A stretch of DNA of 64,000 bases from an uncultured Chloroflexia bacterium. Lineage in GTDB: Bacteria; Chloroflexota; Limnocylindria; Limnocylindrales; CSP1-4. The notes under the pieces are model-generated. The model saw only the letters and a list, made by a program, of their open reading frames with translations. It did no database searches and was not told where the DNA came from. The number at the start of each line of letters is the position of its first letter. Position 1 is the first letter of the stretch. Location: contig CAVVJT010000010.1 in NCBI GenBank assembly GCA_963748625.1, positions 256,001 through 320,000 on the forward strand, in the 5' to 3' direction. A program made the position numbers and the translations under genes. Shown in pieces: positions 19,138 through 42,195 of this stretch.

Positions 19138-19363
19138 CTGTCTCCGCGCGACTGCTGACCAATGGACACAACGGTGTGCAGTCGAAGCGTCGGCGATACG
19201 CCTGCACGGGAACACGGGACGGCAGTGCCCCCACGCGGCAGCCGATGGTCCTACCGGGGCCTGTGCAATGCGGCGCACATGGTTGCGGCGCAGCCGATCC
19301 GGCTGCGCCGCGGTCTCCTGGCGGTCGGCGTCACCGCCGCCCGCATGATCGGTTCAGGCGGGT

Positions 19364-19826: not shown

Positions 19827-21755
19827 CTACTCCAGGTAGTCCTTGAGCTTGCGACTGCGCGACGGATGCCGCAGCTTGCGCAGCGCCTTCGCCTCGATCT
19901 GGCGGATCCGCTCGCGGGTGACATTGAACTCCTTGCCCACCTCTTCCAAGGTCCGAGCGCGGCCATCCTCCAGGCCGAAGCGCAGTTGGAGGACCCGCCG
20001 CTCCCGCCCCGTCAGGGAGTCGAGCACGGCTTCGACCTGCTCCTTGAGCAGCTGGTGGCTGGCGGCTTCGGCCGGGGCGAGGGCGCCTCGGTCCTCGATG
20101 AAGTCACCGAGGTGCGAGTCCTCCTCCTCACCGATCGGCGTCTCGAGCGAGACCGGCTCCTGCGAGACCTTCATGATCTCACGGACCTTCTCGGGCGTGA
20201 CGACGACGACGATCTCGGCCTCCTTCTCCTTCTTCTTGGGCGGCTCGATATCGATGTCCCGGCCGACCTCCTTGACGTTGAACCCGTCCTCCGGAAGGCC
20301 GGCGAAGTCCACCTTCGAGCGGTCGGCCAGCTGGAGGAGGACGCCCGGCGTCTTGTCGCCACGCACCTCGAAGGACACGATGTTGTCGCGCCCGCCGACG
20401 GCCGTGAAGATGCGGGTCGTGTTGTCCGGCCCCAGGGTCATCGCAAGGGCGATCTCCTCCACCGTGGGCTCGCGGCCCAGGTCCTGGAGGAGCTGGCGCG
20501 ACACGCGGATCAGGCGGTTGATCGTCTCGACCATGTGGACCGGGATCCGGATGGTCCGGGCCTGGTCCGCGATGGCGCGGGTGATCGCCTGGCGGATCCA
20601 CCACGTCGCGTAGGTGGAGAACTTGAAGCCCTTCTCGAAGTCGAACTTCTCCACCGCCCGGATGAGACCGATGTTCCCCTCCTGGATCAGGTCCAGGAAG
20701 CTCATGCCGCGCCCGATGTACTTCTTGGCGATGGACACGACGAGGCGCAGGTTGGCCGAGGTGAGCTGCTCGCGGGCGTCACGGCCGATCTTGACCACGT
20801 CGCCCTTGCGGTCGCGCATCTTGGTCTGGGGCGGGACCTCGGGGTCAAAGCCCATGCGGCGCAGCAGGTCGGCATCGTTGCCGGCCTCGATCCAGCGCTG
20901 GAGCGCCGGGTAGGCGACCTCGTCGCGCGTCCAGTCGTAGATGGCGCGCAGGCCGGGGTTGTCGCGCGAGTCGAGATCCCCGTTGTGGACCGAGAGATAG
21001 GACCAGTCGAGAATCTCGTTGAACGCTGCCGCTGTCGGCGCCTCGTTGTAGGCTGCCAGCTTCTCCTTGGCCTGCTTGAGCAGCGCCTTGGTACCGTCGG
21101 ACTGGGCGTCCTTGGCCAGCTTGGTGTACGCGATCTCGGGTCCCGGAACGAGCAGGTCGCTCGCGCCGTCGGCGGCCAGGGCATCCGCCACCATCTGGTG
21201 GGTCTCGGGACCGAAGGGCAGCCGGTGCTGCGACTTCGCGGTGCGGGTCTTGCGCTCCGTCTCGTGGAGGGTCCACTCGTGCAGCGAGACGATCGCCTTC
21301 CACGGCTCCACGATGATCTGCTCGCCCAGCTCGATCGCCTTGGCGAGGACGACCTCCTCCTCCGCGGTGAGCAGCGCGACCTTGCCGATCTCCTTGAGGT
21401 ACATCCGGACCGGGTCGTCGATCCCGATCATGTCCGCGGAGAGCGCCTCCAGCTCCTCCGTGGACGGCTCCTCCACCTCGGCGGCGTTGAGCTTGGGCGG
21501 GGCGTCCTCGGTTGGCACCGGGACGCCCTCGATGGCCTCCTCGGTCACGATCTCCAGGGAGAGCTCCGGCTCCTCGGGCAGGAGGTCGATGTCGTCCTCG
21601 TCGTCCTCGTCGTCGGACGGCGCTGCCGGCTGCACGGCCACCGCGGCGGGCGCAGCCTTCCTGCCCGACCGGCGGGCGGGCTTCGGAGCGGCCGGGGCCC
21701 CGACTGCCTCCTCGGCCTCGACTGCCTCCGGGGCGATGTCGGTCTCGTCGGTCAT
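19827..21755 (-). CDS. rpoD: Primary sigma factor RpoD (sigma70 group 1) with an extra insertion in region 3
   Basis: [75 protein letters not shown]; downstream of dnaG. Confidence 0.96.
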
Positions 21756-21819
21756 AGGGTCGAGGTCCTCCCGGGTGGCTGGAACGGCGCTGGGACGCAT
21801 GGAGCGGGTCATGTGGGGG

Positions 21820-23766
21820 TCACGCCGTAGCCGCCCCGGCACGGGTGAGAAGGCGGGTCTGGTCACGCCGGCGGTCAAGCGACCGGCGCTGCTCGTTGAG
21901 GAGCCGGCGCTCGAGCATGAGGCGGTCAACCGACTCGGCGTCACCGTCGCGCTCGGCCTCTGCGGTGGCGTCGCGGTTGAAGCCGCTGCGCTCCTGCCAC
22001 TCCACGTCGTCCAGCTCGAGCATGAGACGCTCGATCTCGTACTTGAGCGAGCGGTCGCCGAGATCGCGCGGATTGGGTCCGGGCCGGCTCACGAGGGCCT
22101 GGCCGAGGGCCCGGCTCTCCTCGTCGAGCCCGTCGAGCACCGCCGTGAGCGAGAAGGCCGGCCGGACCCCGTGATCGTCCCGGGTCCGGGCGATCACCAC
22201 GGCGCGGTAGAGCTCACGGGCCACCTGGGACGGCAGGCGATCGGGTCCGAGGCCGTCGAGGACGGCGTCATGCGTCTCGGGCACGAGCAGCACGAGCCGC
22301 AGGAGCTCCTGCTCCGTGCGTGAGACGCCGCGCAGGATGTCGGCCACGGGCAGCGCGTCGGGCGCCCTCGTGACGGCCTCAGCGGTGAAGCGGTCGCGAC
22401 CGTCCTGACCGCCGCGGCGGTCGTCGCCGGCCGGGCGCCGGTGGAGCGCCTCGAGCAGGGTCCGCTCCTCCACTCCGCTGACCTGGTGGACACGGGCGAG
22501 GTAGCCGTCACGCATCACCGGGTTGGGCAGGTTGCGGATGATCGGCAGGACGGCATCGACGAAGCGGGCGCGGCCGCCTGGCGCGCGCAGGTCGTGGACG
22601 CGGGCGTGGACGTCGATGAGGTAGTCGATGATCGGCTGCGCGGTCCGGACCTCCTCGCGCCAGCGGTCCGGCTCGTCCCGGATCACCTCGTCGGGGTCCC
22701 GGCCCTCGGGAAGGCGGACCACGCGCACGTCGTCGAGCTCCACGCCCGAGTCGTCCGGGGCCAGCTGGCGGATCAGCTCCTCGAGCGCGGTGGCGCCGAA
22801 GGTGCCCGCCTTCTGGCCCGCAGCGTCGACGTCGTAGGCGAGCGCGATCCGCTTGCCGTACCGGGTGATCAGGGCGACCTGCTGCGGCGTGAGCGCCGTA
22901 CCGAGGCTGGCGACCACGTTCTCGAAGCCCGCCTGGTGGGCCATCAGCGCGTCGGTGTAGCCCTCGACGATCACCGCCTGGCCGGTCTTGCGGATGGCGC
23001 TCTTGGCGCGGTCGACCAGGTACAGCGTGCGGCTCTTGTCGAACAGCGGCGTGGCCGGTGAGTTGAGGTACTTGGGGCCGCGATCCCGGCCGTCCTCGGT
23101 TGGCCCCTCCTTGCCCAGGATCCGGCCGCCCAGGCCCACCGGGTGCCCGTTGGCGTCGCGGATCGGGAAGATCACCCGCTCACGGAAGCGGTCGTACACG
23201 CCTCCCCCACGCTGGCGCGGGCTGGCCAGGCCGACCTCGAGCAGCTCGTCGGGGCGGACCTGCCGCTTGGAGGCGAGCTGGCGGGCGAGCGAGTCCCAGC
23301 CGCCCGGCGCCCAACCGAGCTGGTGCTTCTCGATGGTGGCGTCCGTGAAGCCGCGGTCCTTGAGGTACGCGAGGGCGGCCTCGCCCTGCTTCGACTTGGT
23401 CAGGACCGCGTGGTAGAAGGCGATCGCGGCCTCCATCACGTCGCGCAGGCGGGCGGCGCGGGCATCCTCGCGCTTGGTCCGCTCGTCGATCTCCACCCCG
23501 GCCCGCGCGGCCAGCGCCTTGAGCGCCTCGGGGAAGGCGACCTGGTCGCGCTCCATGACGAACGTGAAGATGTCGCCGTGGAGGCCGCAGCCGAAGCAGT
23601 GCCACGTGTCGCGCACAGGGGTCACGACGAAGGACGGCGTCTTCTCGCCGTGGAACGGGCACAGCCCCTTGAGGGTGGTGCCGGCCTTCTTCAGCTGGAC
23701 CGTCTCCCCGACCACGTCAGCGACCGGTAGGCGACCCTTGATCTCGGCGACAACGCCGACCGCCAA
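21820..23766 (-). CDS. dnaG: DNA primase
   Basis: Zn finger [11 protein letters not shown]...CFGC; KYLNSP; TOPRIM VEGYTD and YDVDAAG; TTG start with GGGGAGGAG RBS. Confidence 0.96.
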
Positions 23767-23820
23767 GCGCGCTCCTCCCCGAATTCCCTGGGCTCGTACC
23801 GGCGGAAATGACGACGGACC

Positions 23821-23925
23821 TGTCAAGTCTTGACAGGCCTCGCCAGCGATCGAGAGTACCCCCGGTCACCGGTTCCGGCAAGGAACCACGGGCGTTGTCA
23901 AGTGCCGTGTCAAGAGGCTGTCAAG
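23821..23925. promoter_or_regulatory. TGTCAAG/CTTGACA motif cluster upstream of dnaG-rpoD
   Basis: Palindrome TGTCAAG-T-CTTGACA at 23821-23835, plus TGTCAAG direct repeats at 23896, 23908 and 23919. Confidence 0.55.
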
Positions 23926-24315: not shown

Positions 24316-25983
24316 TCAGGGTGGCGCGGGCTGGGTCGTGAGCCACTGGTGGGCGGCCAGGACATCGAGCCGCCCGGATCCGTACGCGTTGTCCGCGCCG
24401 GCAGGACCCAGGTCGATTGCGGAGGCCTCCAGGGCCGCTGCCTGTTGGGCAACGGTGAGGCCCGGGTGCGCCCCCAGGAGCAACGCGAGGGCGCCGGAGA
24501 CATGGGGGGCGGCCATCGATGTGCCGCTTGCGGTCTGGTAGAGCCCATATCGGTCCGCCGAGCGGATCCCGACACCCGGTGCAACCAGCTCCGGATAGGT
24601 CGTCGACGGCTCGCCACAGGCTGACGGGCCACGGCTCGACGTGGGGTCGACGACATCGGCTCCATTCACGGCGCCGACTGCCAGCGCCTCGGGGAGGTTG
24701 GCCGGACTCACACTCGTGCCCGCGGACGGGCCTTGGTTGCCAGCGGCGAAGACCGGCAGGATGCCGGCTGCCAGGACGGCCTGGAGGTCCGGCTGGAACT
24801 CCAGGCTGCAGCCGATGGTGCCCGACGCCCAGGAGCTGTTGAGCACGTCAGGGGCGTCATCCGTCCCGGGATCCCCGTCCGGGTCCAGGATCCACTGGAA
24901 CGCGAGGTGGATTGCGGTTGTGGTGGCCGCACCTGCGTCGTTGAAGATCTTCGCTGCGATCCAGGTCGCCCCCGGGGCCATGCCGATGGTGGTGCCGCCT
25001 GCGTCCCCTCCGACGATGACGCCCATGGTCGCCGTGCCATGGCCGGTCATGTCGACGGGCAGGTCGGGATGCTGGCCATACGGGTCAAACCAGGAGTTGG
25101 CCCCGCCTCGCCAGCGGGACGCAAGGTCCGGATGGTAGGCGTCGACGCCGGAGTCGAGGCTTGCGACCACGACGCCCTGGCCGGTGTATCCGGACGACCA
25201 CATCGCGGGTGCGTTGACGGCGGCGATGTTAGCCTCGGGCGGGCCGAGGGGCGTCGGCGTCGGCGTGGGTGCGATGGTCGGCGTGGGCGTCGGCGTTGGC
25301 GTGGGTGCGATGGTCGGCGTGGGCGTCGGGGTGGGCGTTGGCGTTGGCGTGGGTGCGATGGTCGGCGTCGGGGTGGGTTTGGGCGATCGCGTCGGCCGGG
25401 GGGTTGCGGTCGGGCGGGGCGTTGCGGTCGGGCGTGGCGTGGCGGTCGGCCGGGGGGTTGCGGTCGGGCGTGGCGTGGCCTTGGCCCGGGCCCTCACGGC
25501 AGGTCGTGCAACCGGCGTCGGCTCGGTACCCCACAGCGGCACGACGCCGGCGTCATCGCTCAGCACGGCGGCCACATCCGGGCGCCCCGCGATGGCGCGG
25601 ATCACGGGTTCCGACGCGGTCACCGAGACCGCGTTGACCACCCACAGGGGAACCACACGAGCGACGCGCCCCCGCGCCCGTTCGCCTGCGAGGACGTCCA
25701 GGAGCTGCGCCTGTGCGGTGGCAGCATGGTCGCGGAGGGCCCGCTGCACGCCTCGCAGCGCCGCACGCCGACCCACCCGCGGAACGCGGCTGAGGTCCGC
25801 CTGCGAGCGCAGCATAACCACCACGGTGCGCATCCCCGCCGGCGTGCCGTCGGGGAGCGACACGCCGGCGGGACTCCCGATGCGCGGGACGCTGGTCCGT
25901 TCCGAGGCCGCACTGCCGGTCGCGCCCGGAGGGGCTATGGCCAGCAGCGCCACGATCAGGACGGCGACGGGGACCCTGCGCAT
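24316..25983 (-). CDS. Secreted S8 (subtilisin / bacillopeptidase F-like) serine peptidase with a Pro/Thr linker
   Basis: Signal peptide and propeptide; TPRPTA and PTPTPTIA repeats; catalytic triad [22 protein letters not shown]. Confidence 0.93.
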
Positions 25984-25993: not shown

Positions 25994-26566
25994 TCAGCTC
26001 TGTGCTGCGACCGGCTCGAGCCGGATCGCGTCGATGACGACGGAGACCGGTACGCCCGCCTGCACGAGCCCACCCGAGTTCGGGAACAGGAGGAAGTAGC
26101 TCGCGCCGTCGGCCAGCTCGAGCTTGTGCGCGCGCGGCTGGGGTGCCCGAAGGACGGCCCCGTTGGCGGTGAGCAGCTCGGGCAGGGTGGCCGCGTCGTG
26201 CAGGATGTGGTCGGCCTTGTTCTTGTCGAGGACGGTGAAGCGGAGGTCCACGAGTCCCCCGTCGGCGGTCACCGCCACGAGGTTCACGCGGATCCCGTAC
26301 TCCGCCTCCATCTCGCCTTCGGACACGACGCGCGCGTCTGCGGCGTTCCGCGCGAAGAGGTCGGTGAACTCCGCGGTCCATGTGATCGCGGCGGTCACCA
26401 TGACCGGCAGGACGACGGCTCCAGCGAGTGCCGCCAGCCACGGCCGCACCCGGAGTCGTGCCCGTCGGCGCTCCGCCGGCTCCGGTGAAGCCGGCGCGGG
26501 ATCCTGGGCCTCCGGTACCGCGGCCGGGAGGCCGCGGTCCAGCTCGGTTCGATCGATGGTTGTCAT
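25994..26566 (-). CDS. Membrane-anchored hypothetical protein of the cupredoxin operon
   Basis: Single TM followed by [28 protein letters not shown]; tight operon spacing. Confidence 0.75.
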
Positions 26567-26570: not shown

Positions 26571-29500
26571 TCAGGGCAGGTCGAACGCGTCGACGTCGAG
26601 GTTGCCGGCGGTCAGGCCCTTGGCGGTCCCGTCGAAGTAGACCGTCCAGGTCCCGCCGTTGAGGTAGACGACGTCCTCGTCCTGGACGGCGCCCAGGCCG
26701 GGCACCGTCGTGTCAGCGCTGTACGAGAGGTAGATGTGTGTGGCGTCGACCCGGACGAGGCCGTCCACGTTGGCCGTGGACCACCCCAGCGCCGAGGCGT
26801 CGTGCACGCGGGCGTAGACGCTGCCGTTCCAGCTGTAGATGTCGGCGTCGTCGCCGCCACCCGTGACGCCCGGCGGGATGTCGGTGTCGTCGGTCGAGAA
26901 GTAGAGCGTCCCGCCGGCGATGGTGATCGCGTCGAGGTCGGTCCCCGCGAGACCGTTGGCGCTCCCGTCGAAGTAGAGCGACCAGGTGCCGGCGTTGAAG
27001 TAGACGACGTCCTCGTCGGCGACGGTGCCCACGCCGGGAACCGCCACGTTTCCGTTGAAGGAGACATAGAAGTGGGTGGCGTCGACCTGGTCGAACCCGT
27101 CGACGTTGGCGCCCGTCGGCAGCGAGTACGGTGCCGCGGTGGCGTCGATGGTGCGGCCGAAGACCGACCCATCCCAGAGGTAGATGTCGGCGTCGTCCGC
27201 CGTTCCGGCGACGCCGGGCGGGTTCGTGCCGCCGGAGGTCGAGAAGTAGAGCGGGGTGATGACCGTGTAGACCTGGCCGACGAACGGCAGGCCCGCGGTC
27301 GGCAGGGCGTTCCCTGCGACGTCCTTGATCCCGGTCGCCGAGGTGAGGTTCAGGCCGAGGGTGCCGCCGTTGGAGCCGGTCGAGGCCGTCACGGTGCGCG
27401 TGGAGCCAGTTCCGGTGACCGACGAGATGGAAGCGCCCGACAGGCCGCCCCCGCCCACGAGGGTGAAGTTGCCGCTCGTGACCCCGGTCACGGTCTCCGA
27501 GAACGTCACGAGGAACGAGACGCTCGCCGCGGAGGTGGGACTGGGATCGACCCGGTCGATGCTGCCGATGGTCGGCGGCGTCTTCTCGATCACGAGGGTG
27601 GTCGTGCTCGCAGCGCCCCAGTTGCCGGCAGCGTCCTTGCCGCGGACGTGGATGGTGTGGTTGCCCACGCTGAGGAGGTTGATCGTCGTCAGCGGGATGT
27701 CGGCGTAGACCGCCTCCGTGGCAGCGTTGAAGACGCTGTCGGAGGCAACGAACACGAAGCCCGTGCCGGTGGCGCCGACGGTGTCGATGAACCCCTCGCC
27801 CGCGGCGATGGCGCTGTTGCCCGATGCGGTGTCGTCGATCGTGGCCGTGACGCGGACCGACGGATTGCTGCTGGTCACGCCGAGCGAGCCGCCGTTGGGG
27901 TTCGGGGTGGCAGTGACGCCGGTCGTCGTCGGACCGGTCGCGTCGGAGGCCAGGGTGATCGTGACGAACGGGCCCCAGTTGCCGGCGGCGTCGAGTGCGC
28001 GCACGGACACCACGCCGGACTGTCCGGCAGGGATGGTGGCCGTGATGGCGGCGACGGTCGCGACGTGGTTGAGCGTCATGCCGATCCCGGTGCCGGGGGC
28101 CCCGGTCGCGCCGACGAAGTACTCGGCGGCGACAACGTTGCTGTTCCCGGTGGTGACGTCGCTGGCCGTGCCGGCGAGCGCCACGGGGACGCTGCCGTCG
28201 GACGAGCTGGGGGTCAGCGTCAGGCCGCTCACGGTGGGCCCGGCCATGTCCAGGGTGATCGTCGTGGCGGCGAACGATCCCCAGTTCCCGAGGGCGTCGC
28301 GGCCGCGCACGTACACCGTGTGCGTCCCCGAGGTCCAGGCGCTGGTGTCGATCTCGCCCGAGTTCGTGGTGACCGCCTCGGCCACCTCGTCGAACGCCAG
28401 GTCGGCGGCCGTCATCGGCAGCGCCGTGCCCGAGTCGACCTTGTACTGCGCGGCGTCGATGGTCGTGCCGCCGGTCGCCGCGTCGTCCACGGTCGCCGTC
28501 AGCGTGTAGGTGCCCGGCCCTGCCGGCGTCAGGGTGACGCCGCTCGTGACCGGGCCCGCCGTGTCCGTGCCGGAGGCCGTGCCGGCCGCATCCACGAGGG
28601 CCAGCATCCCGCCGATGCCGTAGACGGAACCGACGTTGACGTTGCTGTTGTTGAGCAGCATTGCCGCGTCATAGATCGGGTACTTGGTCGAGGTCGTGGC
28701 CGACACCGGGACGGCGGCGAGGACGTCGGCGGTCTGGCCCGGAGCCAGGGTGTCGGCGACCATCGTCCGCGGCGCCGGCAGGAGGCTGCCATCGGTCGCC
28801 AGCATCCGCTGGGGCAGGCCGAGCGCGCCAATCGAGTGGTGCAGGATCCCCGCGTTCACATACCTCAGGAGCAGGGAGTTCCCGCCCGTGGTCGTGATCG
28901 AGGAAGCCGTCGACGAGTAGGCCGCGCCGTTGACGAGGAACCACTTCGGGGCGAAGGCGCGGAGGTCGAACGTCCAGGGCGTCGCGCTGCCGTTCAGGGC
29001 CGGATCGATCTCGCCCAGCACGACGAGGGCCTCATCGTCGAAGGCGGTGGACGCGGCCGCATAGGCCTGCATGGGGGCGCCGACCGGCCTGACGACCAGG
29101 GCGCCGTAGAGGCCCATGGCCACCTGGTACTCGGAGCCCGGGATCAGCCCCGCCTCGTAGAGGTAGGTGCCCGGATCGTCCGCTGTGAACGTGTACACCT
29201 TCGTGCCGCCGCCGGCGGTCGCGCCCGTGATGTCGGACGCGATCGCCTGGCCGCCGAACTGGATCGAGGTCGGGCGTGACAGCGTGTTGTGGAGCGTGAT
29301 CGTGACCTGGTCGCCCTCGTCGGCGACCAGGACCGGTCCCGGAGCCTTGGCGGGGAGGGACGCCGACGGGGCGAATCCCCAGATCGTCGCCGTTCCGCCG
29401 CCGGGCAGCGAGACCGTCCCGGTCTTTGCCCACAGGTCGCAGGCGACCGTGGTGCCGCTGTCGACACAGGCCGGGTTCGGGCCGGGATCGATCGGCCCGG

Positions 29501-29603
29501 CGGCCGCGGCGATTCCCGGGACGAGCAGCGCCGCGAGGGCGAGCGCCGACCCGAGGGCCGCCGAGGAAAGGATGCTGCGCTTCATCGTACGTTCCGATCG
29601 CAT
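26571..29603 (-). CDS. Secreted protein: two ligand-less cupredoxin domains, Ig-like repeats and a C-terminal propeller-like repeat (MCO subunit C)
   Basis: PGPVLVADEGDQVTITLHN; GTYLYEAG...MGLYG (Cu ligands lost); three D(A/L)AGNWG-type Ig repeats; two LYFST..DDADIY..DEDVVY repeats. Confidence 0.8.
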   Translation of the reverse strand: MRSERTMKRSILSSAALGSALALAALLVPGIAAAAGPIDPGPNPACVDSGTTVACDLWAKTGTVSLPGGGTATIWGFAPSASLPAKAPGPVLVADEGDQVTITLHNTLSRPTSIQFGGQAIASDITGATAGGGTKVYTFTADDPGTYLYEAGLIPGSEYQVAMGLYGALVVRPVGAPMQAYAAASTAFDDEALVVLGEIDPALNGSATPWTFDLRAFAPKWFLVNGAAYSSTASSITTTGGNSLLLRYVNAGILHHSIGALGLPQRMLATDGSLLPAPRTMVADTLAPGQTADVLAAVPVSATTSTKYPIYDAAMLLNNSNVNVGSVYGIGGMLALVDAAGTASGTDTAGPVTSGVTLTPAGPGTYTLTATVDDAATGGTTIDAAQYKVDSGTALPMTAADLAFDEVAEAVTTNSGEIDTSAWTSGTHTVYVRGRDALGNWGSFAATTITLDMAGPTVSGLTLTPSSSDGSVPVALAGTASDVTTGNSNVVAAEYFVGATGAPGTGIGMTLNHVATVAAITATIPAGQSGVVSVRALDAAGNWGPFVTITLASDATGPTTTGVTATPNPNGGSLGVTSSNPSVRVTATIDDTASGNSAIAAGEGFIDTVGATGTGFVFVASDSVFNAATEAVYADIPLTTINLLSVGNHTIHVRGKDAAGNWGAASTTTLVIEKTPPTIGSIDRVDPSPTSAASVSFLVTFSETVTGVTSGNFTLVGGGGLSGASISSVTGTGSTRTVTASTGSNGGTLGLNLTSATGIKDVAGNALPTAGLPFVGQVYTVITPLYFSTSGGTNPPGVAGTADDADIYLWDGSVFGRTIDATAAPYSLPTGANVDGFDQVDATHFYVSFNGNVAVPGVGTVADEDVVYFNAGTWSLYFDGSANGLAGTDLDAITIAGGTLYFSTDDTDIPPGVTGGGDDADIYSWNGSVYARVHDASALGWSTANVDGLVRVDATHIYLSYSADTTVPGLGAVQDEDVVYLNGGTWTVYFDGTAKGLTAGNLDVDAFDLP

Positions 29604-29623
29604 GGTCGTTCCCCTACCTCTCA

Positions 29624-31018
29624 TCACGGACAGGTGTTGGGCAGGGGCGGATCGACCCTCGTGTAGGTGATCGGCCCGGTCATGTTCACGCCCCACGACG
29701 TGAGCTGGTAGAGCGCGTGGTTGTGGGCGATGATGTAGAACTCGCCGCACTCGTTGAGGGTCTGGACGCCCGGTGGCATCGCCTCCTGGACGCCCAGGTA
29801 CGGGCTGCCGCCGTAGAACATCCCGATCGTGAGGTTCTGCAGGTCGGGCTCGGTGGCCGGGACCGTGTTGGATGGCGAGTAGCCCTCGGCGTCGCGCCAG
29901 TCGAAGAGGACGTCCCAGGTCTGTCCCGGCCCGATGTTGACGGCGAACTTGTCGAACGACAGGTCCTCGGCCGCAGCGCCCTCGAGCGGCGCGCCGTCGC
30001 GCCCGATCACCTTGCCGTTGTTGCCGTGAGGGTGGAACGGGAAGTCCATGCTGCCCACGCTCAGGTAGCGGTCCACGGCCGGCAGCGGGTTGGAGGTGGC
30101 GTCATACGGGAGGATCGGGGCCAGCGACCCGTAGGGCTGGCTGGGCAGCCACGACGCGAAGTTGTCCGCGATGCTGTCGGGGAACCCCCGCCCGTTGATC
30201 AGCCAGTACCGCGGGTGGTACGTGTTCATGTTGAACGCGTTCCCCTTGAGGACCCTGGCGTTGAGGTAGGGGTCGATCTCCGAGAGCAGCACGAGGAACT
30301 CCGATGACTGGGTGGCCGTCGGCGCCTTGAACTGGGAGTCGGCCCGGTTGTAGACAAAGGTGTCACCCATCGCCGGGCGGACGATCAGGGCTCCGAAGAG
30401 TCCCATCCGCACCTGGACCTGGGGGCTGGCGTAGGGACTCGGGGTCCCACTCGACTTCTGGCCGCCTCCGCTCTCGTACAGGAAGGTGCCGGGCTCATCC
30501 GCGACGAAGCTGTAGGTCACGGTCCCGCCGCCGGGCTGGGCCGCCTGGGCGAGCGAGGTCATCGTCGTCCCGCTGAACTGCGGCTGTGACGGCACGCCGT
30601 TCGCGGTGACGTTCTCCTGGCCCGGGAACACGATGGACACGGCCGGCGCGTTCTTGGGGGACGTGGCCGTGAATGTGTTCTTCAAGATCACGGTCACCGT
30701 GTCTCCCTCGTGGACGCACAGGACCGGCCCGGGATGCTGGAACGGCTTGTTGCCCTCGGAGAAGCCCCACATGTACGCGGTGGTGCCGTCCGGCAGGTTG
30801 ATGTACCCCGAGCGCGTCGTCAGGTTGAAGGTCGGGTTGGGGCCGCCTTCCGTGCACACGATGCCGATGGCATTGCTGCCCTCGGTCGCGGCCGTCACGG
30901 GCCGCGCGGCGGGCGGCGACAGCAGCACCCCGAAGACCAGGATGGGCGAGACCAGCAGCGCCAGCCAGCGGCGGGCGCGTGGGCGCGTGGACCGTTGCAT
31001 CGTCATCACTCCGCTCAT
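29624..31018 (-). CDS. Secreted two-domain multicopper-oxidase-family protein (subunit B; HxH pairs only in domain 2)
   Basis: PGPVLCVHEGDTV; domain 1 SIVFPG and LYESG (no ligands); domain 2 FHPHG and AHNHA. Confidence 0.82.
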   Translation of the reverse strand: MSGVMTMQRSTRPRARRWLALLVSPILVFGVLLSPPAARPVTAATEGSNAIGIVCTEGGPNPTFNLTTRSGYINLPDGTTAYMWGFSEGNKPFQHPGPVLCVHEGDTVTVILKNTFTATSPKNAPAVSIVFPGQENVTANGVPSQPQFSGTTMTSLAQAAQPGGGTVTYSFVADEPGTFLYESGGGQKSSGTPSPYASPQVQVRMGLFGALIVRPAMGDTFVYNRADSQFKAPTATQSSEFLVLLSEIDPYLNARVLKGNAFNMNTYHPRYWLINGRGFPDSIADNFASWLPSQPYGSLAPILPYDATSNPLPAVDRYLSVGSMDFPFHPHGNNGKVIGRDGAPLEGAAAEDLSFDKFAVNIGPGQTWDVLFDWRDAEGYSPSNTVPATEPDLQNLTIGMFYGGSPYLGVQEAMPPGVQTLNECGEFYIIAHNHALYQLTSWGVNMTGPITYTRVDPPLPNTCP

Positions 31019-31026
31019 CACCGCAC

Positions 31027-32427
31027 TCACGCCGGGTCGTCCGGGTGCTGGTTGGGGTAGGCCTGCGCCGGGAGCGTCCCGGCCGGGTACACATGCACCT
31101 CCGTCCGCTGGCCTCCGCCGTCCCCCACGAGGTTGTCGCCACGCGTGTAGGCGCGGTTGTAGAGCACGTAGGTGTCGTAGCCGTTGCCGCTCGAACCGGA
31201 GCCACCGCTGAAGGCCGGGGCCGTGAGGATGACGTCGAAGCTCTCGCCGGCGCCGAAGGAGAGGGTGTTGGTGCCATAGCTCGTACTGGCACCGCCGCGT
31301 CCCCGCATCCGCGTGGCATCCCGCCCGACGACCTTCATCTTGATGCCCTCGATGGTCATCGCCGCCTCCATGAACCCGAGGTTCGCGAAGCGGAGGAGGA
31401 CCCGCTCGCCGGCATTGGCCGAGACGAGCGCCGAGTTGGGCTGGGCGGCCAGGTCGGGACGGCCCGAGGGGTAGGCCAGGTCCCAGTTGGCGTCCCGATC
31501 CGGGTACACGTTGAAGTTCCGGTTGGAGGGCGTCGGATTGTCGCCCTGCCGGGCGACGGAGCCGTTTGGCAGGAGCGTGTCCGGGTAGACCCGGCCGTTG
31601 AGGAGGCTGAAGTCGGCCCGGTAGTCGCTCCACTCCGGCAGCTGGATGTGGGCGTCCGCCCAGTGGGAGTCGCCCCACACCTCGGACAGGAACATCGCGT
31701 ACTCGCGGTCGAAGCCCGTTGAGCCGTCGCCATCGTTGTACGCGTACTTCCCACTGGGGTAGAGGGACGTGTTGCCGTCCTGCGCCGGCCGCACGAACAC
31801 GATGCCGGTCATCCCCATGTGCACGTGCTCCGTGTCCTCCACGTGGCAGTGGAACATGTAGGTGCCGGGGTCACGGGAGACGTACACGTAGGTGAACGTC
31901 TGGCCCTGCGGGATCGAGACCGAGCCGGTGGGCTCGCCGTCGAAGAACGGGATGACGTTCTTGAAGCCGTGCCAGTGGACGGTGTGCTCGTCGAACAGGT
32001 CGGGCCGCTGGGCCAGGCCCACGTTCGTGAGCTGGACCCGGAAGTCCTCGTTCTCCCTGGCCCAGAACAGCGGGGCCGAGTGCTGGGCCTTGTTCTTGAG
32101 GTTGAACTGGACGTCGTCCGCGAGTCCGCTCGCGTTCGCGAACCCGAAGATGTATGTCGAGAAGCCGTCGGGCGCGTAGGGGTCGGGGTGCGTCGTGACC
32201 CCCAGGGAGCTCGAGAAGATCGACGGGGTGGGCGGCAGGGAGATCCAGCCGTCCGTGCCGACCAGCTTGAGGTTGGGCTCCTTGTCGGCGCCGCGGGCGC
32301 GGCCCGGCTGGACGATGGTCCCGACCAGGCGTGGGCCGAACGACACGGCGGTGGCCGCGAGCGCGGTCAACCCTCCGTACTGGAGCAGCTGACGGCGGGT
32401 CAGCATCAGTCGTCTCCGATCGGTCAT
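31027..32427 (-). CDS. Tat-exported two-domain multicopper-oxidase-family protein (subunit A; T1 site plus HxH pairs in domain 1)
   Basis: TRRQLLQ Tat motif; EHTVHWHG; MFHCHVEDTEHVHMGM; domain 2 AMTIEG and LYNRA lack ligands. Confidence 0.88.
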   Translation of the reverse strand: MTDRRRLMLTRRQLLQYGGLTALAATAVSFGPRLVGTIVQPGRARGADKEPNLKLVGTDGWISLPPTPSIFSSSLGVTTHPDPYAPDGFSTYIFGFANASGLADDVQFNLKNKAQHSAPLFWARENEDFRVQLTNVGLAQRPDLFDEHTVHWHGFKNVIPFFDGEPTGSVSIPQGQTFTYVYVSRDPGTYMFHCHVEDTEHVHMGMTGIVFVRPAQDGNTSLYPSGKYAYNDGDGSTGFDREYAMFLSEVWGDSHWADAHIQLPEWSDYRADFSLLNGRVYPDTLLPNGSVARQGDNPTPSNRNFNVYPDRDANWDLAYPSGRPDLAAQPNSALVSANAGERVLLRFANLGFMEAAMTIEGIKMKVVGRDATRMRGRGGASTSYGTNTLSFGAGESFDVILTAPAFSGGSGSSGNGYDTYVLYNRAYTRGDNLVGDGGGQRTEVHVYPAGTLPAQAYPNQHPDDPA

Positions 32428-32480: not shown

Positions 32481-35400
32481 TCACGGCAGGGTCCCCCCGC
32501 CGAAGTCGTCGAAGCGGGCGTCGCCGGGCGGGTTGCCGGTGCCGGCGATCCGGACGCCGACCTGGCCGCCGCCGGATGCGCCGGCCCAGGTGCCGGCAGG
32601 GACGCTCACGCTGCCGACCTGGATGCCGTTGCGGAACACCGTGATCGTGCCGTCGGCGAGCGCCCTGGCCCCGAGCTGGTCGCCCGCGTAGAACACGGCC
32701 GGGAATGAGGCCCGGTCGACGAGGACGCCGCCCGATGCCTTGGTCCTGACCTGCACGGCGCCGGCACCGCGGTTGTAGACGACCTCGATCAGCGACGCGG
32801 TGGTCGCGGTCGTCCCGGTCCCGGTCCGCTTGAGGATCAGGCCCTGCTTGGTCGCGGCCGCAGGCCCGACCTGGGTGAAGGTGAGGTACGCCTCCTGGTT
32901 GGCCCCGAACGCCGTCGCATTGCGATAGACGTCGCCGCCGAGGCGGACCTGGACCGCGCTGCCGTCGATCCGGAAGTTGTTCTGGTTGGTGGAACCGGTC
33001 CACGGGTTGCCGAGGGCCCCGTTGGCCCGGTTGAAGGCGTCGAGGAGGCCGGCCTGCGGGAAGGCGAGCGGGGCCGGCACAGCGGCCGGGGCCGGGACTC
33101 CGGCCCGCTCGTCCGCACCGATGTCGATGGCCCCGCCGTTCGGGCGGCCGTCGTTGTCGATGTCCCACGCAGGGGCGATGACGCCGGACTTTGAGGCCGC
33201 GCCTGCGTCAACCGCCGGTGACGTGGCGGGGACGTGGTAGTCCCCGAGCGTCCCTGCGGGTGCGTCGACCGCGACCAGGAGGGCCCCGACGAAGTTGGGA
33301 TTGGTCCGCCACGGGGAGAACGAGACCGACAGGTCGAACTCGCTCGCCACGGACGGGTCGGCGTCGACGACGTTCGTCGGGCTGGCGATCACGCCCGCGT
33401 GGCCCTGGGACTGCAGGATCGAGTTGGTCGGGCTCAGGAGCCCGGCGCCATCGGAGACGCCGAGGTCCCAGGTGTCGATCGGCGTCGCGTCGCCGGGGAG
33501 GCCGATGCCGACGACCGTCCCACCGGAGCGGGTGCCGGCCCGGTTGTCCCAGAAGACGTTGTTGAACAGGAGCGGCTCGCTGAAGGTCGGCGAACCACCC
33601 GGCAGCGTCGCCTGGAGCAGGTCGCTGTTGGCGCCCGTGGAGAGGCCGGCGGGCGCCGCCTCACCCGTGCTCGTCGCGGCGGTGGCCGTGGTGATGTTGT
33701 TCATGACCGTGTTGTTGATGACCCGGACAGCCGGGGCGTCGTCGATGGCGATGCCGCCGCCTTCGTGGGTCGACACGTTGTTCACGATCATGTTGTTGAC
33801 GACGTTCATCGGGTAGTTGCCGGCCATCAGGAACCGGATCCCGCCGCCGTCATCGTTGGCGATGTTGGCCTGGACCAGGTTCTCGCGGATGTCCACGGGC
33901 CCGGTTCCCGGCGAGAGGATCAGCGGGTCGGCCGGGAGCTCGCCGGCGATCATGATCCCCGCGCCCTCGTCGTAGGAGCTGTTGAACCAGATCCGGTTGT
34001 GGTCGATTGAGCCGTTCGGGCTGTACCCGTAGACGGACACGCCGCCGCCGTACTCGGCCGAGGAGTTGCCGCAGATGTCGTTGCCGGAGACGGTGTAGCC
34101 ATCGCTGCCGGCGAAGAGCCCGATCCCGCCGGCGAGGTTCGTCCCGCCGTTGGTGACCACGCGGTTGTTGGCGATCCGGACGTGGTCGTTGTGCTGGCTC
34201 GTGTCGGGCTCGGGCAGGTTCGGCGTGCCGATCCGGATGCCGCCCGCGTAGGAGCCGCTGTTGCTCTCGATCACGTTGTTCGTGATCTGCAGGTAGCGGG
34301 CGTAGGCATTGACGAAGACGCCGCCACCCTGGGTGATCGCGTTGGCCGGAAGCCCGGTCGGGCCGCCGCCGATCTGGTTGATGTTCGTGGGGAAGTTGGA
34401 CTGGTCGCCGCCGCGGACGTCGAAGCCGTCGATGCCGGCCCGGAACGCGGAGCCGTACTGGCTCGTCGTCGCCGCGAAGACAGAGACGACAGGACCCTCG
34501 TAGACCGTCTGGTTGCCGACGCGGGTGAGCGCGTCGATGGCGGTCCGCCAGTTGTCGGCCAGGGCGGTGTCGCCACCGAAGGCCGAGCCGTCGATGACGG
34601 AGCCCTGGACGGACCCGTCCGCGCTGCCCGGGCCCACGCCCTGCAGCTTGACCGGCGAGTGGACGATCAAGTTCTCGTAGTACGCGCCGCGCGGGTTGAG
34701 CCGCGGGTTGGACGGCGTGGCGAGGCCCGGGTAGACCACGATGAGGTCGTCACCTGGGCTCGCAGCCGCGGCGTCGAGCGCATCCTGGACCGGATGCGGC
34801 GGGTTGCCCTCGTCGTACTGGACGGCCGGGAACTGGTTCGGACCGCTGAGGCCGGGGCCGACCTCGTACAGGTTCGGCTCGTATCGGCTGTTCCCGATCG
34901 TGCCGCCGCCGAAGTTGTCGAAGCGGGCATCGTTGGCCGCCGTGGTGCCGGCGAAGCGGACCGCGATCCGGCCGCCACCGGTCACGAAGGCGGTCGCACC
35001 AGTCGTCGGGATGGCGACCGGGGCGCCGATCTGGGCGCCGTTCTTGAACACGCGGACGGTGCCGTCCGCGAACGCCCGTGCGCCGAGCTGGTCACCCGCC
35101 GCGAAAGTCGCCGCGATCGCGGGCCCACGGTTCGTGATCGTGCTCGAGCCGGCGTTCTTCGTCTTGACCTGGACGGCGTTGCTGGTGCCGTTGAACACGA
35201 CGCTGATCCAGGAGGACGCGTTCGCGTTGGGGCTCGCCGAGCTGCCGGTGAACTTGAGGAGCACACCCTGCTCGGCGGCTGTGGCGGTCTTGGTGAAGGT
35301 GAAGTAGGCCTCCTGGTTGGGACCGAAGCCCGTGCCCGGCAGCCAGGTCGCGTTGCCCTGGCTCGACGTCGAGTTCGTCAGCGCCTGGGCCTGGTTCGTG

Positions 35401-38400
35401 AAGCCGACGAGACTGGTCGGTGTGACCCGGAACCGGCTCGTGGTGTTGCCGTCGGCGCCCCAGCTCGCGCCGAGACCCTGCGCGGTGCTCGCAGTGCTGC
35501 GGTTGAAGTCGTCAAGCACGGCGGTGGCCGGGAACACGTCCTGACCGAGCACGTGGAAGGTGATCCCGTTCACGGTGCGGGCGCCCGACGTGGAGGTGAT
35601 GGCGAGCTGGTGCGGCCCGACCGGGGTGGTGGCCGGGACTGTGACGTCGATGTGGCTGGCACTCCACGACGTCGTCGGCAGGGCGACCCCGTCAAGCGCC
35701 ACGGTGCCGGCGGCCGCGCCGAAGCCCTGGCCGTCGATGCTGAACGACTTGGTGCCGGCCGTCCGCATGTCGACGTACGGCCTGGAGACTGCGTACAGCT
35801 CGGGCGCGGTCGGTGCCGCCGGGTCGTTCACGCGGCAGACGAGCGGCCCGTTGAACTGGGCGCCCGGCAGCTGCGCGTTGACGCCCAGCTGGGTCGGGGC
35901 CGTGTCGGCGGGCACGATGAGGCCGGCGAAGACCTCGAACTCGGCCGCGATCGTCCGGTATTGCGGGTTGTAGTTCAGGTTCAGCCGGCCCGGGACGCCC
36001 GGGTCGTTGCCGACCATCCGATAGAGGTTGGCGCAGACGCCCGATGGCGTCGGGCAGTTGATCCGGTTCGTGGACGGCAGGAGGACGTCCGCGAGGCCGT
36101 TGTAGTCGGTCTCGACGGTCGTCACGAGCCGGTTGGCCCAGTCGTAGACGCCCACCGGGTTGAAGGCCATGCCGGCCTTCTCGCCGTAGAGGATCGACTT
36201 CGGGTCGGTGGAGAAGTTGAGGTCGTCGACGTTGTAGAAGAAGAATCGGCCCGGGAGCGGCACGTCGGTGAAGACGTTGAACATCGGCACGATCGACTTG
36301 CCGTTCTGCAGGTCGACGAGCTTCGTGTCGCACAGCGGGCGTGCCGTGCCCTCGTAGGGCGAGGCACCGATGTCGACGAAGGTCGGGTTGGCGGTGGTCT
36401 CCGAAGCAGGGGCGCTGATCGGCGCGCCTCCGTTGCCCGACGGATCGTCCAGGCTCACGGGGCCGTAGCCGTCGGTGCCGAAGTCGGCCACGTCGACCTG
36501 GTGGAGGGGGCCCGCGCAGGCGGGCGGCGGAACCTGCGGCACGAACGTGTCGCCGTTCCCGATGTTGATGTCCTCCTCGCGGGTGACCTTGTAGACCGGG
36601 TCGCCGTTCTCGTCGGTCTTGCTGGCGAGGTCGAGGTGGACGAGGTAGCCGTCCGCCGGGAGGGCATCGAACGCGACCTCGCCCACGGCGTACACGTCGC
36701 CGACCGCGAAGGTGTTGGCCGTGCCACCGGTCAGGGCAGCCACGAGCGTGATCCGCGTCTCGGAGTTGACCGTGGCGACCGTGCCCGTGGAGCCGTCGGT
36801 CGCGTTGACGACGGGATCCCCGGCAACCACGCCATCCGTGATGAACGTCGCGGTGGCGTCGTTCATGACGGTCGCCGACGGCGTGGCCGTCGCCGCATGG
36901 ACCACGTAGGCGTCGCCGGCCTTGAAGATGTTCGGGTCGAAGTCCGTGCCGCCGGCAAGCGGCGCGACGAGGGTGATCGTCTGGCCGGTGCGGCTCGCGA
37001 CGATGCCGCTCGAGCCGTCGGTGGTGTTGAGCACGATGTCGCCCGCGGCCACGCCGTTCGCGATGAACGTCGCGGTCGGGTCGGTCAGGACGGTGGCGGA
37101 GTCGGGGGCGATGACCTGGTAGGCGTCGCCGGCCGCGAACACGTTCGGGGTGACAGCGTCCGTATTGCCCGTGAGCGGCGCGACGAGGGTGATCGTCTGG
37201 CCGGTGCGGCTCGCGACGATGCCGCTCGAGCCGTCGGTGGTGTTGAGCACGATGTCGCCCGCGGCCACGCCGTTCGCGATGAACGTCGCGGTCGGGTCGG
37301 TCAGGACGGTGGCGGAGTCGGGGGCGATGACCTGGTAGGCGTCGCCGGCCGCGAACACGTTCGGGGTGACAGCGTCCGTATTGCCCGTGAGCGGCGCGAC
37401 GAGGGTGATCGTCTGGCCGGTGCGGCTCGCGACGATGCCGCTCGAGCCGTCGGTGGTGTTGAGCACGATGTCGCCCGCGGCCACGCCGTTCGCGATGAAC
37501 GTCGCGGTCGGGTCGGTCAGGACGGTGGCGGAGTCGGGGGCGATGACCTGGTAGGCGTCGCCGGCCGCGAACACGTTCGGGGTGACAGCGTCCGTATTGC
37601 CCGTGAGCGGCGCGACGAGGGTGATCGTCTGGCCGGTGCGGCTCGCGACGATGCCGCGTCGAGCCGTCGGTGGTGTTGAGCACGATGTCGCCCGCGGCCA
37701 CGCCGTTCGCGATGAACGTCGCGGTCGGGTCGGTCAGGACGGTGGCGGAGTCGGGGGCGATGACCTGGTAGGCGTCGCCGGCCGCGAACACGTTCGGGGT
37801 GACAGCGTCCGTATTGCCCGTGAGCGGCGCGACGAGGGTGATCGTCTGGCCGGTGCGGCTCGCGACGATGCCGCTCGAGCCGTCGGTGGTGTTGAGCACG
37901 ATGTCGCCCGCGGCCACGCCGTTCGCGATGAACGTCGCGGTCGGGTCGGTCAGGACGGTGGCCGAGTCGGGTCCCGACGCGGTGCCGCTCGCGCGGACGA
38001 TCGGGGCCAGCGTGCCGCTCGCGCGGACGATCGGGGCCAGCGTGCCGCTCGCGCGGACGATCGGGGCCAGCGTGCCGCTCGCGCGGACGATCGGGGCCAG
38101 CGTGCCGCTCGCGCGGACGATCGTGGAGATCGTGCCACCGGCGCGGAACGCGCCCGTGACGGAGCCGCCGGAGACCGCGCAGATCGGGGCGGACGGGTCG
38201 GTCGCGACGAGCTCGCCGTTGAAGCAGCCGTCGCCGAAGCCGTAGTTGCCGTCCACCGCGGCGCCGAAGTTCGCGTCAGGGGTTCCCTGGTCCGAGGCGT
38301 AGGTACCGAACTGGACGCCCATCAGGGGGCCTTCGAGGCAGCCCTTGTTGGCGCCCACCGGCAGGACCTGCTGGTCGGTCGGGTAGACGAGCGCGTTGCC

Positions 38401-40623: not shown

Positions 40624-40691
40624 CGCCTGGTGCTCCTTGCTGCGGGTGGGACGCGGGATGCGGGCGGCGTTCGGGGGGCGGGTGCCGCCGC

Positions 40692-41292
40692 TCACGCGTC
40701 GGTCCCGTCGGTGGCGGCATCCGGGGCGGACGCCGTGGGGATTGGCGCGACGGCTCTCGCGCGCCGGGTGTCCCGCCACGGGACTCCCACGAGCAGGGCG
40801 ATCGGCGTGATCACGAGCAGCGCGGCCTGGAGCGCCGCCAGCCCGTCGCCGAGGAGGTCGGCCAGGAGGTCGACATCGGCCTCCTCCTCCGCCCCGAACA
40901 GGAACCCGTGAAGCTCGTTCCCGGGCATGCTGAGGAGCGCGAAGAGCGCCGCCGCCAGCCCGGCCCAGGCGAGTGCGGTCAGGGGCGAGATCGTGCGGGG
41001 CTCCTGGCTCCATGCGCGGCTGACAAGCAACGCGGCCAGCATCACGGCGATCGCGGCGGCCGGGCACGGCGAGACCCGTGTCGCGCAGCCAGTGGAGGAT
41101 GGGCGGCGGCTCGTTGCGCTCGTGGAGGCCGGCGTGGACGAGCTGGAGCGCGGCGATCGGGATCCCGGCCAGCAGCCACGAGTAGGCGACGACGCGACCC
41201 GGCAGAAGGCGGACGCCGGGTCCCGCCTCGACCCCTGGGCGACGTTCGACCCGCATGCGCGTAGGCCGGTGGGCAGCGACCGCTCGACTCAT
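40692..41292 (-). CDS. His-containing membrane protein, first gene of the cupredoxin operon (frameshift near 41062)
   Basis: GGAAGGAG RBS; LQLVHAGLHERNEPPPILHWLRDTGLAVP, continuing in a shifted frame as AAAIAVMLAALL...PGNELHGFLFG. Confidence 0.6.
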
Positions 41293-41523
41293 GCATCCGC
41301 TCCTTCCCGAACACTCCGGGCCCGCGTGCGACCTCGCACGCAGATCTGCGGCCATGCCCGGTCCGGGCCTGACCTGATGCACGGATGCTGCGTCTGAGCG
41401 TCGGCGGCGCCCATCGGGCCGGGTCCGTGTTGGGGCACGGTCGCAACCGGGTTTCGGATGGGGGGGGAACCCTGACGGGCATCAGGTGGACACCCGATCC
41501 CGGCCACGCTGGGCCGGGCGGAC

Positions 41524-42195
41524 CTACATGTCGGCGGGGATCAGGCCGACGCGGATCGCGTAGCGGACGAGCCCGGCGACATCGCGGATGTTCAGGCGGT
41601 CCATGAGCTGGGCCCGGTGGGTCTCCACGGTCTTGATGCTCAGGTTCAGCCGGCTGGCCATCTGCAGGTTGGTGTGGCCTTCGGCGATCAGCTGGAGGAT
41701 CTCCCGCTGGCGCGAGGTCAACCCGTCCGCGACATCATCGTCGGATGCCGAGCGGCGCACGTAGTCCGAGACGACGTGGCGGGAGACCATCGGGCTGAGG
41801 TAGGAGCCGCCCTGGGCCACCGCGCGAACCGCAAGCTCAAGCTCTGCGGGGCTGGAGTCCTTGAGCAGATACGCGGCTGCGCCGGCGCGCAGCGCCTGGC
41901 GCACGTACTCCTCGTTGCGGTGCATCGTGAGAACCACGATCCGAACGCCCGGGTGGTCGCGGCGGGCTTCGGCGATCGCCTGGATGCCGCCAAGGCCCGG
42001 CATCGTCAGGTCCATGACGGCCACGTCCGGCTGGTGGGTGGCGATGCACGCGAGGGCCTCAAGCCCGTCCTCAGCCTCTGCGATGACCGTCACACCGGGG
42101 AACCCGTCGAGCAGGCTGCGGAACCCGGCCCGGACCAGGGCATGGTCCTCGGCGAGGACGACACGGATGGCGGACGGCGGCCCGTTCACCGCCAT
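41524..42195 (-). CDS. NarL/FixJ-family response regulator
   Basis: LAEDHALVRAG, VMDLTMP, YLLKD, LTSRQREILQLIAEG..SIKTVETHR. Confidence 0.93.
   Translation of the reverse strand: MAVNGPPSAIRVVLAEDHALVRAGFRSLLDGFPGVTVIAEAEDGLEALACIATHQPDVAVMDLTMPGLGGIQAIAEARRDHPGVRIVVLTMHRNEEYVRQALRAGAAAYLLKDSSPAELELAVRAVAQGGSYLSPMVSRHVVSDYVRRSASDDDVADGLTSRQREILQLIAEGHTNLQMASRLNLSIKTVETHRAQLMDRLNIRDVAGLVRYAIRVGLIPADM

Follow-up and report, generated by a model that had tools for sequence, protein, structure and literature searches.

A 64,000-nucleotide stretch of DNA from an uncultured Chloroflexia bacterium (positions 256,001 to 320,000 of contig CAVVJT010000010.1, assembly GCA_963748625.1; hereafter the window; G+C content about 70%) raises the question of how three adjacent genes, A, B and C, each encoding two cupredoxin domains, could yield a multicopper oxidase when none of the three products carries the full set of copper ligands. 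All three were clean frames in translation, on the minus strand, between positions 26571 and 32427 of the window. From sequence comparisons, it is likely that A, B and C assemble into a 1:1:1 six-domain ring that acts as a single catalytic unit, in which A and B share a trinuclear copper cluster and C is structural. The three proteins probably work only as this mixed three-part ring.

Subunit A (31027-32427; 466 aa) began with a twin-arginine signal (MLTRRQLLQ) and contained two cupredoxin domains. Domain 1 held a complete type-1 copper site with an axial Met (H148, C194, H201, M206) and four His of a trinuclear cluster (H151, H153, H193, H195). These ligands lay in the motif HTVHWHG (residues 148-154; 31966-31986), which contributes one type-1 His and two cluster His, and in the motif HCHVEDTEHVHMGM (residues 193-206; 31810-31851), which contributes the other type-1 His and the axial Met as well as the His-Cys-His wire, and which also holds three invariant acidic residues (E197, D198, E200). 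Domain 2 of A was without ligands, with AMTIEG and LYNRA where the ligand motifs would stand. Subunit B (29624-31018; 464 aa) had no ligands in domain 1 (SIVFPG and LYESG) and four cluster His in domain 2 (H329, H331, H432, H434), located by re-translation in FHPHG (residues 328-332; 30023-30037) and HNH (residues 432-434; 29717-29725), with Asn433 between the last two His. Subunit C (26571-29603; 1010 aa) comprised a signal-like N-terminus with two cupredoxin domains devoid of a copper ligand set (residues 1-345; 28569-29603) and a long tail (residues 346-1010; 26571-28568), and no HxH or HCH motif was found in its translation. The type-1 site was absent from B and C. Summed over the three chains, the ligands amounted to one type-1 site plus eight His in four HxH pairs, two pairs in A, two in B and none in C; the full trinuclear HxH set occurred in no single chain and was complete only as A plus B. 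An initial annotation, made from the letters of the window, had described this division of ligands among A, B and C, including the export signal of A and the Asn of B, and the translations agreed with it throughout.

The same annotation had called all three gene products two-domain cupredoxin proteins, which agreed with Pfam for A, B and C and with structure prediction for C. Cu-oxidase families (PF07731, PF07732 or PF00394) matched above their curated cut-offs in A (E = 7e-12, 3e-11 and 1e-6), B (E = 1e-4 and 3e-4) and C (E = 2.6e-10). The matches fell in both halves of A, and B was a two-domain chain with a predicted local distance difference test score (pLDDT) of 93 in the complex model presented below. 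The AlphaFold2 (AF2) model of C residues 1-345 consisted of two cupredoxin domains (pLDDT 86; predicted template modelling score, pTM, 0.84), and its best Foldseek match was 3g5w (E = 1.4e-20; TM score 0.73 on the target), followed by 6vow and 2zwn. By sequence, the PDB entries nearest to A domain 1 were of this group too, namely 3g5w, 3gdc and 2zwn (E values of 2e-12, 2e-11 and 3e-8). In NCBIfam, A, B and C had sub-threshold matches only, to CopA, CueO, ascorbate oxidase, laccase and NirK models, and therefore none of them belongs to a curated equivalog. The database names seen were all generic ('multicopper oxidase domain-containing protein' or similar), as expected from the earlier claim that annotation gene by gene would miss the system. 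The Ig-like appendages that had been attributed to C were present as Ig-type matches, albeit weak and mostly below curated cut-offs (Big_13 and PKD below, Y_Y_Y just above), and were followed in the tail by two repeats of about 100 residues each (26574-27221; 58% identical, E = 1e-37).

A homologue scan with one genome per species returned 119 relatives of A, and 80 loci were kept, with 53-76% identity to A. Nine loci were left out of the extraction of A because the match crossed a stop, which in eight of them was the gene's own terminal stop. The sequences counted were 72 for A, 74 for B and 69 for C, and three tool-made alignments (A1-A3) had 67 rows each. Each of the eight copper ligands of A was present in 72/72 sequences, and the same held for three acidic residues beside the type-1 His (E197, D198, E200). 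In B, H331, H432 and H434 were present in 74/74 sequences, and H329 and N433 in 73/74. No His or Cys of C reached 95% conservation among its 69 sequences, and none was found among the columns conserved at 90% or more in its 67-row alignment; H256 was semi-conserved (54/67 rows). The 67-row alignments agreed with the ligand counts for all three subunits. The ligand split, including the HPH and HNH of B on which the initial annotation depended, was thus invariant or nearly so across 69-74 homologues from at least five phyla.

This conservation bears on whether the trio is an oxidase at all. It might instead be a structural or copper-binding module of a surface assembly, with the type-1 site of A serving only electron transfer or copper storage; two of the three subunits are largely ligand-less, the ring would stand in the context of a giant surface protein encoded upstream, and a gene for a CopC-CopD (CopCD) copper-handling protein lies nearby. 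This explanation is improbable, however, given that all 12 ligands of the type-1 site and the trinuclear cluster were present in 72/72 (A) and 73-74/74 (B) sequences across phyla and persisted in relatives of only 33% identity, with the His-Cys-His wire intact. A trio without catalytic activity would hardly retain its ligands to this degree.

Outside the canonical copper motifs, residues H116, H255, D258 and H260 of A (about 31648-32082) were invariant or nearly so (71-72/72), and may form an extra metal or proton site. Residues 263-269 of A, which adjoin H255, D258 and H260, fall in the modelled interface between A and B.

Relatives of A were carried by Chloroflexota, Anaeromyxobacteraceae, Acidobacteriota, Actinomycetota (Cryobacterium, Intrasporangium, Nocardioides, Terrabacter, Phycicoccus, Lacisediminihabitans) and Gamma- and Betaproteobacteria (Methylobacter tundripaludum SV96, Methylococcaceae, Chromatiaceae, Steroidobacteraceae, Ideonella, Burkholderiales). 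The order A-B-C, whose conservation the initial annotation had left to be verified, was kept in 77/80 loci (tblastn), and the three remaining contigs stopped early, two just after A and one after B. Among 201 genomes sampled evenly from the phylum of the window, the window's own genome included, A was found in 8 (E ≤ 1e-60), B in the identical 8 and always adjoining A, and C again in the identical 8 (E ≤ 1e-86). Two further genomes of the 201 had weak C-like matches only (E = 1e-44 to 1e-47), and in one of the two the match was a different protein, of four domains and without ligands. A 758-aa frame (locus L132, G140:C26, about 8290-10077) encoded two tandem C-like two-domain units, that is four cupredoxin domains, was matched only weakly by the A of the window and had no A gene nearby; its product looks like a different, ligand-poor relative.

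The trio was present in one copy in the genome of the window (4.63 Mb, 10 contigs) and in none of 7 other genomes of the same family. This absence from family relatives, together with 55-65% identity between phyla, suggests that the operon spread laterally. Carriage of the main clade on plasmids was considered as well, and the plasmid collection searched gave no sign of it, with a single record matching A at E ≤ 1e-40, a Ralstonia megaplasmid.

Subunits A, B and C were paralogous. In BLASTP comparisons, A and B aligned collinearly across both domains (22% identity, E = 2e-17), B and C were 34% identical over domain 1 (E = 3e-33), and A and C matched with E = 2e-7, with a second segment in domain 2. 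In a quick maximum-likelihood tree of 57 sequences, for which the careful search was unfinished, A, B and C formed one group each (Shimodaira-Hasegawa-like approximate likelihood ratio test, SH-aLRT, 100, 95 and 88, respectively), B and C were sisters (100), and the same three sub-clades recurred in the same order inside each group. Because of these groups and their parallel sub-clades, the tree is read here as pointing to a triplication and a division of ligands that preceded the spread of the operon, after which the three subunits diverged together.

Two divergent clades kept the same division. In a second clade, made up of metagenome loci found with a fusion protein, A was only 32-42% identical and stood in the same operon; HxxHxHG and HCHx5Hx4M were retained in 26/28 A-like genes, and E-D or E-A was retained next to the type-1 His. 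The third clade was represented by the megaplasmid of Ralstonia solanacearum MolK2 (NZ_CP115947.1; L134, 302826-321854 of the record), with A 33% identical. Its A-like frame had HTVHFHG and HCHITPPEHLQMGM, its B-like frame had HPFHEHGNH and WHSHNE, and its C-like part had no HxH. The two cupredoxin domains of C were retained in all three clades. The Ralstonia copy, whose record was unannotated, was preceded by small genes with a prepilin-type N-terminus. A B-like two-domain unit (HPFHHHGNH, WHSHNE) was also found behind an unrelated N-terminal domain of about 440 residues (PF22778) in protein P0133 (836 aa), which by its motifs is another deployment of the four-His half.

Natural fusions were of three kinds. 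Fusions of B with C were found in 9 protein clusters (866-1177 aa), each consisting of a B part, a linker and a C part; HPHG and HSHA occurred exactly once in each, and HCH was absent. The linker had about 160 residues or more and a conserved basic domain, and sometimes also the repeat module of the C tail. The closest DNA relative of a B-C fusion (L081) had an A-like gene upstream. Fusions of the giant upstream protein with A were surveyed in 22 long proteins among the best 150 representatives; 8 were full-length (1994-2710 aa), with an N-part and a C-part of the giant protein and ending in an A domain, six were partial, with the C-part of the giant protein followed by A, and both A motifs were retained in all 22. 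In Ralstonia, C was fused to the giant protein in one open frame of at least 2446 aa. By 'Rosetta stone' logic, the three kinds of fusion suggest that A, B and C are physically assembled with the giant protein. The heterotrimer that had been proposed at the outset is supported by the B-C fusions, the strict co-occurrence and the parallel trees of A, B and C, and C would be its third member.

The part played by C is also where a simpler enzyme has to be weighed, made of A and B only, as a heterodimer or as an A-B-A or A-B-B ring with one composite copper site, with C a separate surface or adhesin-like protein that shares ancestry and operon. Such an enzyme would suit a modelled contact that concerns A and B alone, and a C that is ligand-less and has the long Ig and repeat tail typical of surface proteins. 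It is nevertheless unlikely, as the cupredoxin domains of C were retained in three clades and co-occurred strictly with A and B, and C was fused to B in 9 protein clusters; moreover, a closed ring of two-domain units needs three chains, as in solved homotrimers, and in an A-B-A ring a half-site would be idle.

The contact between A and B was predicted with a complex model of A residues 47-466 and B residues 44-464, each with its own alignment. The model had an ipSAE (interaction prediction score from aligned errors) of 0.87 (0.88, 0.87 and 0.86 in three runs), vs. 0.01 for the best of 3 controls. The ipSAE mark applied was reached by 58/80 solved complexes and by 2/110 mismatched pairs. The runs shared at least 96% of their contacts, and the pLDDT of the partners was at least 92. 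The confident interface included H151, H153 and residues 197-200 of A, and H329, H331 and H434 of B, which makes five ligand His. As ligands of A domain 1 and of B domain 2 were both in the interface, the two half-sites are predicted to face each other, as had been anticipated in the initial annotation. Conservation was greater in the interface than in the rest of the protein both for A (0.84 vs. 0.72; p = 0.0014) and for B (0.81 vs. 0.69; p = 0.0017), in a contrast that includes the ligand residues.

An alternative on which this model bears is that A and B form separate homotrimers, A3 as a blue protein with type-1 copper only and B3 as another copper protein, with their complementarity a relic of subfunctionalisation without pairing. 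The solved relatives 3g5w, 2zwn and 3gdc are homotrimeric, and complex prediction cannot tell A-B from A-A. Still, separate homotrimers would leave the four-His half-sites exposed and useless, yet these were invariant; A and B were never apart in the 201 genomes, and the modelled A-B interface was better conserved than the rest of each protein. This alternative is accordingly the least probable of those weighed here.

Several results weigh against the mixed ring of A, B and C. Three of the eight cluster His (H193 and H195 of A, and H432 of B) were not in the list of modelled interface residues, and the ligand residues themselves contributed to the greater conservation of the interface. The complex test also passes pairs similar to solved complexes, as well as proteins closely related to a true partner, and homotrimeric relatives have been solved; the pass therefore indicates that A and B can be arranged as in such a trimer, and says nothing on a preference of A for B over A or C. 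B and C were separate frames in 15/16 related metagenome loci with both parts on the contig, which makes the B-C fusion an exception. Lastly, the AF2 model of a natural B-C fusion (P0125; alignment of 29 rows) had a mean pLDDT of 72 and a pTM of 0.62, with B domain 2 (residues 336-471) below 50, and a structure search with it matched the C part only; for both reasons it says nothing on the packing of B and C or on the geometry of the ring, and it was dropped as a source for the latter, being too poor in B domain 2.

The assembly and reaction of the mixed ring may be envisaged as follows. One ancestral two-domain multicopper oxidase would have given rise to the paralogues A, B and C. A would be exported with its twin-arginine signal, and B and C without one. 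The twin-arginine motif was present in 48/67 aligned rows of A (consensus SRRxFLK), 0/67 of B and 0/67 of C, where many rows begin past the N-terminus, and B had four conserved Cys outside any copper site (C55, C101, C424, C463); for these reasons A and B would take different export routes, and the shared cluster could then be built only after export, as would the ring. The ring would consist of six cupredoxin domains, like the homotrimer of a two-domain oxidase, and setting B domain 2 against A domain 1 in the known geometry of two-domain trimers would give the order B-A-C. The type-1 copper of A domain 1 would accept electrons from the substrate and pass them through H193-C194-H195 to the trinuclear cluster, half of which would be provided by A domain 1 and half by B domain 2, and there, between A and B, O2 would be reduced to water. 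C would be a ligand-less structural subunit that closes the ring and carries or links surface modules.

The substrate might be a metal ion such as Fe(II), Mn(II) or Cu(I). This weak leaning derives from the invariance of E197, D198 and E200 beside the type-1 His, and ferroxidases provide the analogy behind it.

What the initial annotation had overlooked is that the conserved unit extends beyond the trio, to the giant surface protein on one side, and on the other to small membrane protein D and an S8 peptidase. The conserved order was giant protein, A, B, C, small protein D and S8 peptidase, with CopCD in addition in actinobacteria, and the successive spacers in the window were of 53, 8, 20, 4 and 10 nt. 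The gene of the giant secreted protein (32481-40623, minus strand) would encode about 2700 aa if read through a frame break near 37659. The break fell inside a 216-bp tandem repeat (36958-37971; 4.7 copies, 99% matches), which was followed by a 30-bp repeat (37982-38123), and two overlapping frames (35692-41382 and 32481-37574) jointly carry the protein. The break is either an assembly indel or a real frameshift; in three related loci (L113, L115, L125) the gene was a single intact frame of about 2000 aa. The giant gene was conserved upstream of A in related loci. Its product had SdrD-B/prealbumin-like, TIG, right-handed beta-helix and choice-of-anchor Q domains (Pfam, NCBIfam), and no PDB sequence relative was found for its last 1039 residues at E ≤ 1. 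A NosD-like identity of the giant protein was rejected, as the NCBIfam match was faint (17.7 bits vs. a cut-off of 300). In other lineages, the giant protein or the B-C linker bore the repeat module of the C tail; the module followed the giant-protein match in L094, L095, L099 and L100, and occurred in proteins P0124 and P0129.

Small protein D (25994-26566, minus strand; 190 aa) had one hydrophobic segment and a conserved C-terminal domain of no known family, and was encoded downstream of C in 70/80 loci. It had no Pfam match, a faint NCBIfam match to an anti-sigma model (E = 0.0085) and, in the Atlas, only unnamed clusters. A role of D as a copper chaperone was dropped, because no His, Cys or Met was conserved among 71 homologues and no Pfam family was found. 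The last gene of the operon (24316-25983, minus strand) encoded a subtilisin-family S8 serine peptidase (Peptidase_S8, E = 3e-45) with a signal peptide and a Pro/Thr-rich linker, and was found downstream in most loci. A CopC-CopD fusion gene (CopC, E = 4e-12; CopD, E = 1.5e-12) stood between D and the S8 peptidase in 26 loci, actinobacterial and a few others (e.g., 14277-16151 of L023, 625 aa), and was absent from the operon of the window. Its presence fits an enzyme in need of copper loading outside the cell. In the proposed mechanism, D and the S8 peptidase would be accessory, actinobacterial versions would add the copper-handling protein, and the ring would be tethered to, or act on, the giant beta-helix and Ig-rich surface protein. 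From these data, the unit appears to be a ring of three different chains that has a single active site and is tethered to the giant surface protein.

Directly upstream of the giant gene, the window encoded a NarL/LuxR-type response regulator (41527-42195, minus strand), adjoined by a sensor kinase frame (42186-43163, minus strand). About 22 related loci, mostly of Chloroflexota, had similar regulators (28-71% identity) in this position, and the association of this two-component system with the operon is loose. As to expression, no RNA data set was listed for 26571-32427, and the shares in all 18 runs were small (0.10 or less). Downstream of the operon, a secreted HExxH-type protein with fibronectin-like repeats (16879-19278), an RpoD-like sigma factor (19827-21944) and a DnaG-like primase (21820-23826), as assigned by eye from translations, were unrelated to it.

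A broader interpretation, possible and offered as tentative, regards the trio as an unfused ceruloplasmin, in which a triplicated two-domain gene has become a catalytic half (A), a complementary half (B) and a dead scaffold (C), with the B-C, giant protein-A and C-giant protein fusions as stages. The trio would be the redox head of an extracellular machine of four to six components (giant beta-helix surface protein, ABC oxidase, membrane protein, S8 peptidase and sometimes CopCD), moved by gene transfer across at least five phyla; this machine would act at the cell surface, either oxidising a metal ion or cross-linking a surface polymer.

To our knowledge, multicopper oxidases are treated as single-gene enzymes, either monomers of three or six domains or two-domain homotrimers. 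A heterotrimer with its O2-reducing cluster split between two gene products would, if true, be a new quaternary design for the class, and one that annotation gene by gene is unable to recognise. In a full-text literature search that did not extend to subscription journals and supplements, nothing relevant was found on heterotrimeric, heteromeric or split multicopper oxidases or laccases, and an earlier description may therefore exist. A long-standing model derives six-domain oxidases from two-domain trimers by duplication, site loss and fusion, and the trio, if the mixed ring is correct, would be an extant intermediate. That a giant surface protein and a protease are conserved partners of the trio suggests that bacteria of soil, sediment and sludge have an extracellular redox process that is so far unstudied. 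The system should be of high interest to specialists in copper enzymes and protein evolution, and the proposal can be put to a direct test, since cultured carriers of the operon exist (Methylobacter tundripaludum SV96, several Cryobacterium species, Intrasporangium flavum, Terrabacter, Nocardioides and Phycicoccus).

Among known systems, the best sequence matches of A domain 1 were type-C two-domain oxidases (Nitrosomonas europaea blue copper oxidase 3g5w, metagenomic laccase 2zwn, and 3gdc), which likewise led the structural matches for both C and the C part of the fusion (Z = 29.2; root mean square deviation 2.0 over 260 residues). These three structures are type-C homotrimers with the type-1 site in domain 1. 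The trio has in common with them two cupredoxin domains per chain, and A shares the position of the type-1 site. Type-C enzymes are homotrimers with 12 ligands per chain and three active sites, and their trinuclear clusters lie between domain 1 of one chain and domain 2 of the next, whereas the trio has three paralogous genes and one ligand set, with 8 ligands in A, 4 in B and none in C. The SLAC-type (type-B) small laccases of Streptomyces (3t9w was among the PDB matches of A, E = 2e-5) form homotrimeric two-domain rings with inter-subunit trinuclear clusters and a type-1 site in domain 2; in the trio, in contrast, the type-1 site was in domain 1 and of one subunit only.

Ceruloplasmin matched the ligand region of A weakly (E = 0.004). 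In ceruloplasmin and hephaestin, one polypeptide comprises all six cupredoxin domains; the type-1 sites are in even-numbered domains, and domains 1 and 6 have the only trinuclear cluster between them. The trio was encoded by three genes, separated by stop codons and by spacers of 8 and 20 nt, and only B and C were in part fused (four domains). The initial description of the trio as ceruloplasmin-like holds for one trinuclear cluster per six domains, by ligand count and for the putative assembly, but not for the type-1 site, which stands in domain 1 as in type-C oxidases. The Mnx complex of Bacillus spores (MnxG with MnxE and MnxF), cited in the literature as a 'multicopper oxidase complex', is likewise a multi-subunit multicopper oxidase from one operon. 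Its oxidase site is complete in MnxG alone, and the small subunits MnxE and MnxF are not paralogues, whereas in the trio the catalytic cluster itself is divided between paralogues. NirK has the same two-domain fold and a trimeric ring with an inter-subunit copper site, and gave structural matches with Z = 26-28; its NCBIfam matches were weak, with Cu_nitrite_red at 25-35 bits on the trio vs. a cut-off of 296. The type-2 site of NirK has three His, without the His after Cys, whereas HxxHxH and HCH in A and two HxH pairs in B are the oxidase pattern. Judged by its sequences, the trio fails the defining feature of every described class, having no chain with a full cluster, non-identical chains, and six domains that are not on one polypeptide. 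Functionally it would correspond to a two-domain oxidase trimer that has lost two of its three sites, and it resembles ceruloplasmin in its count of sites.

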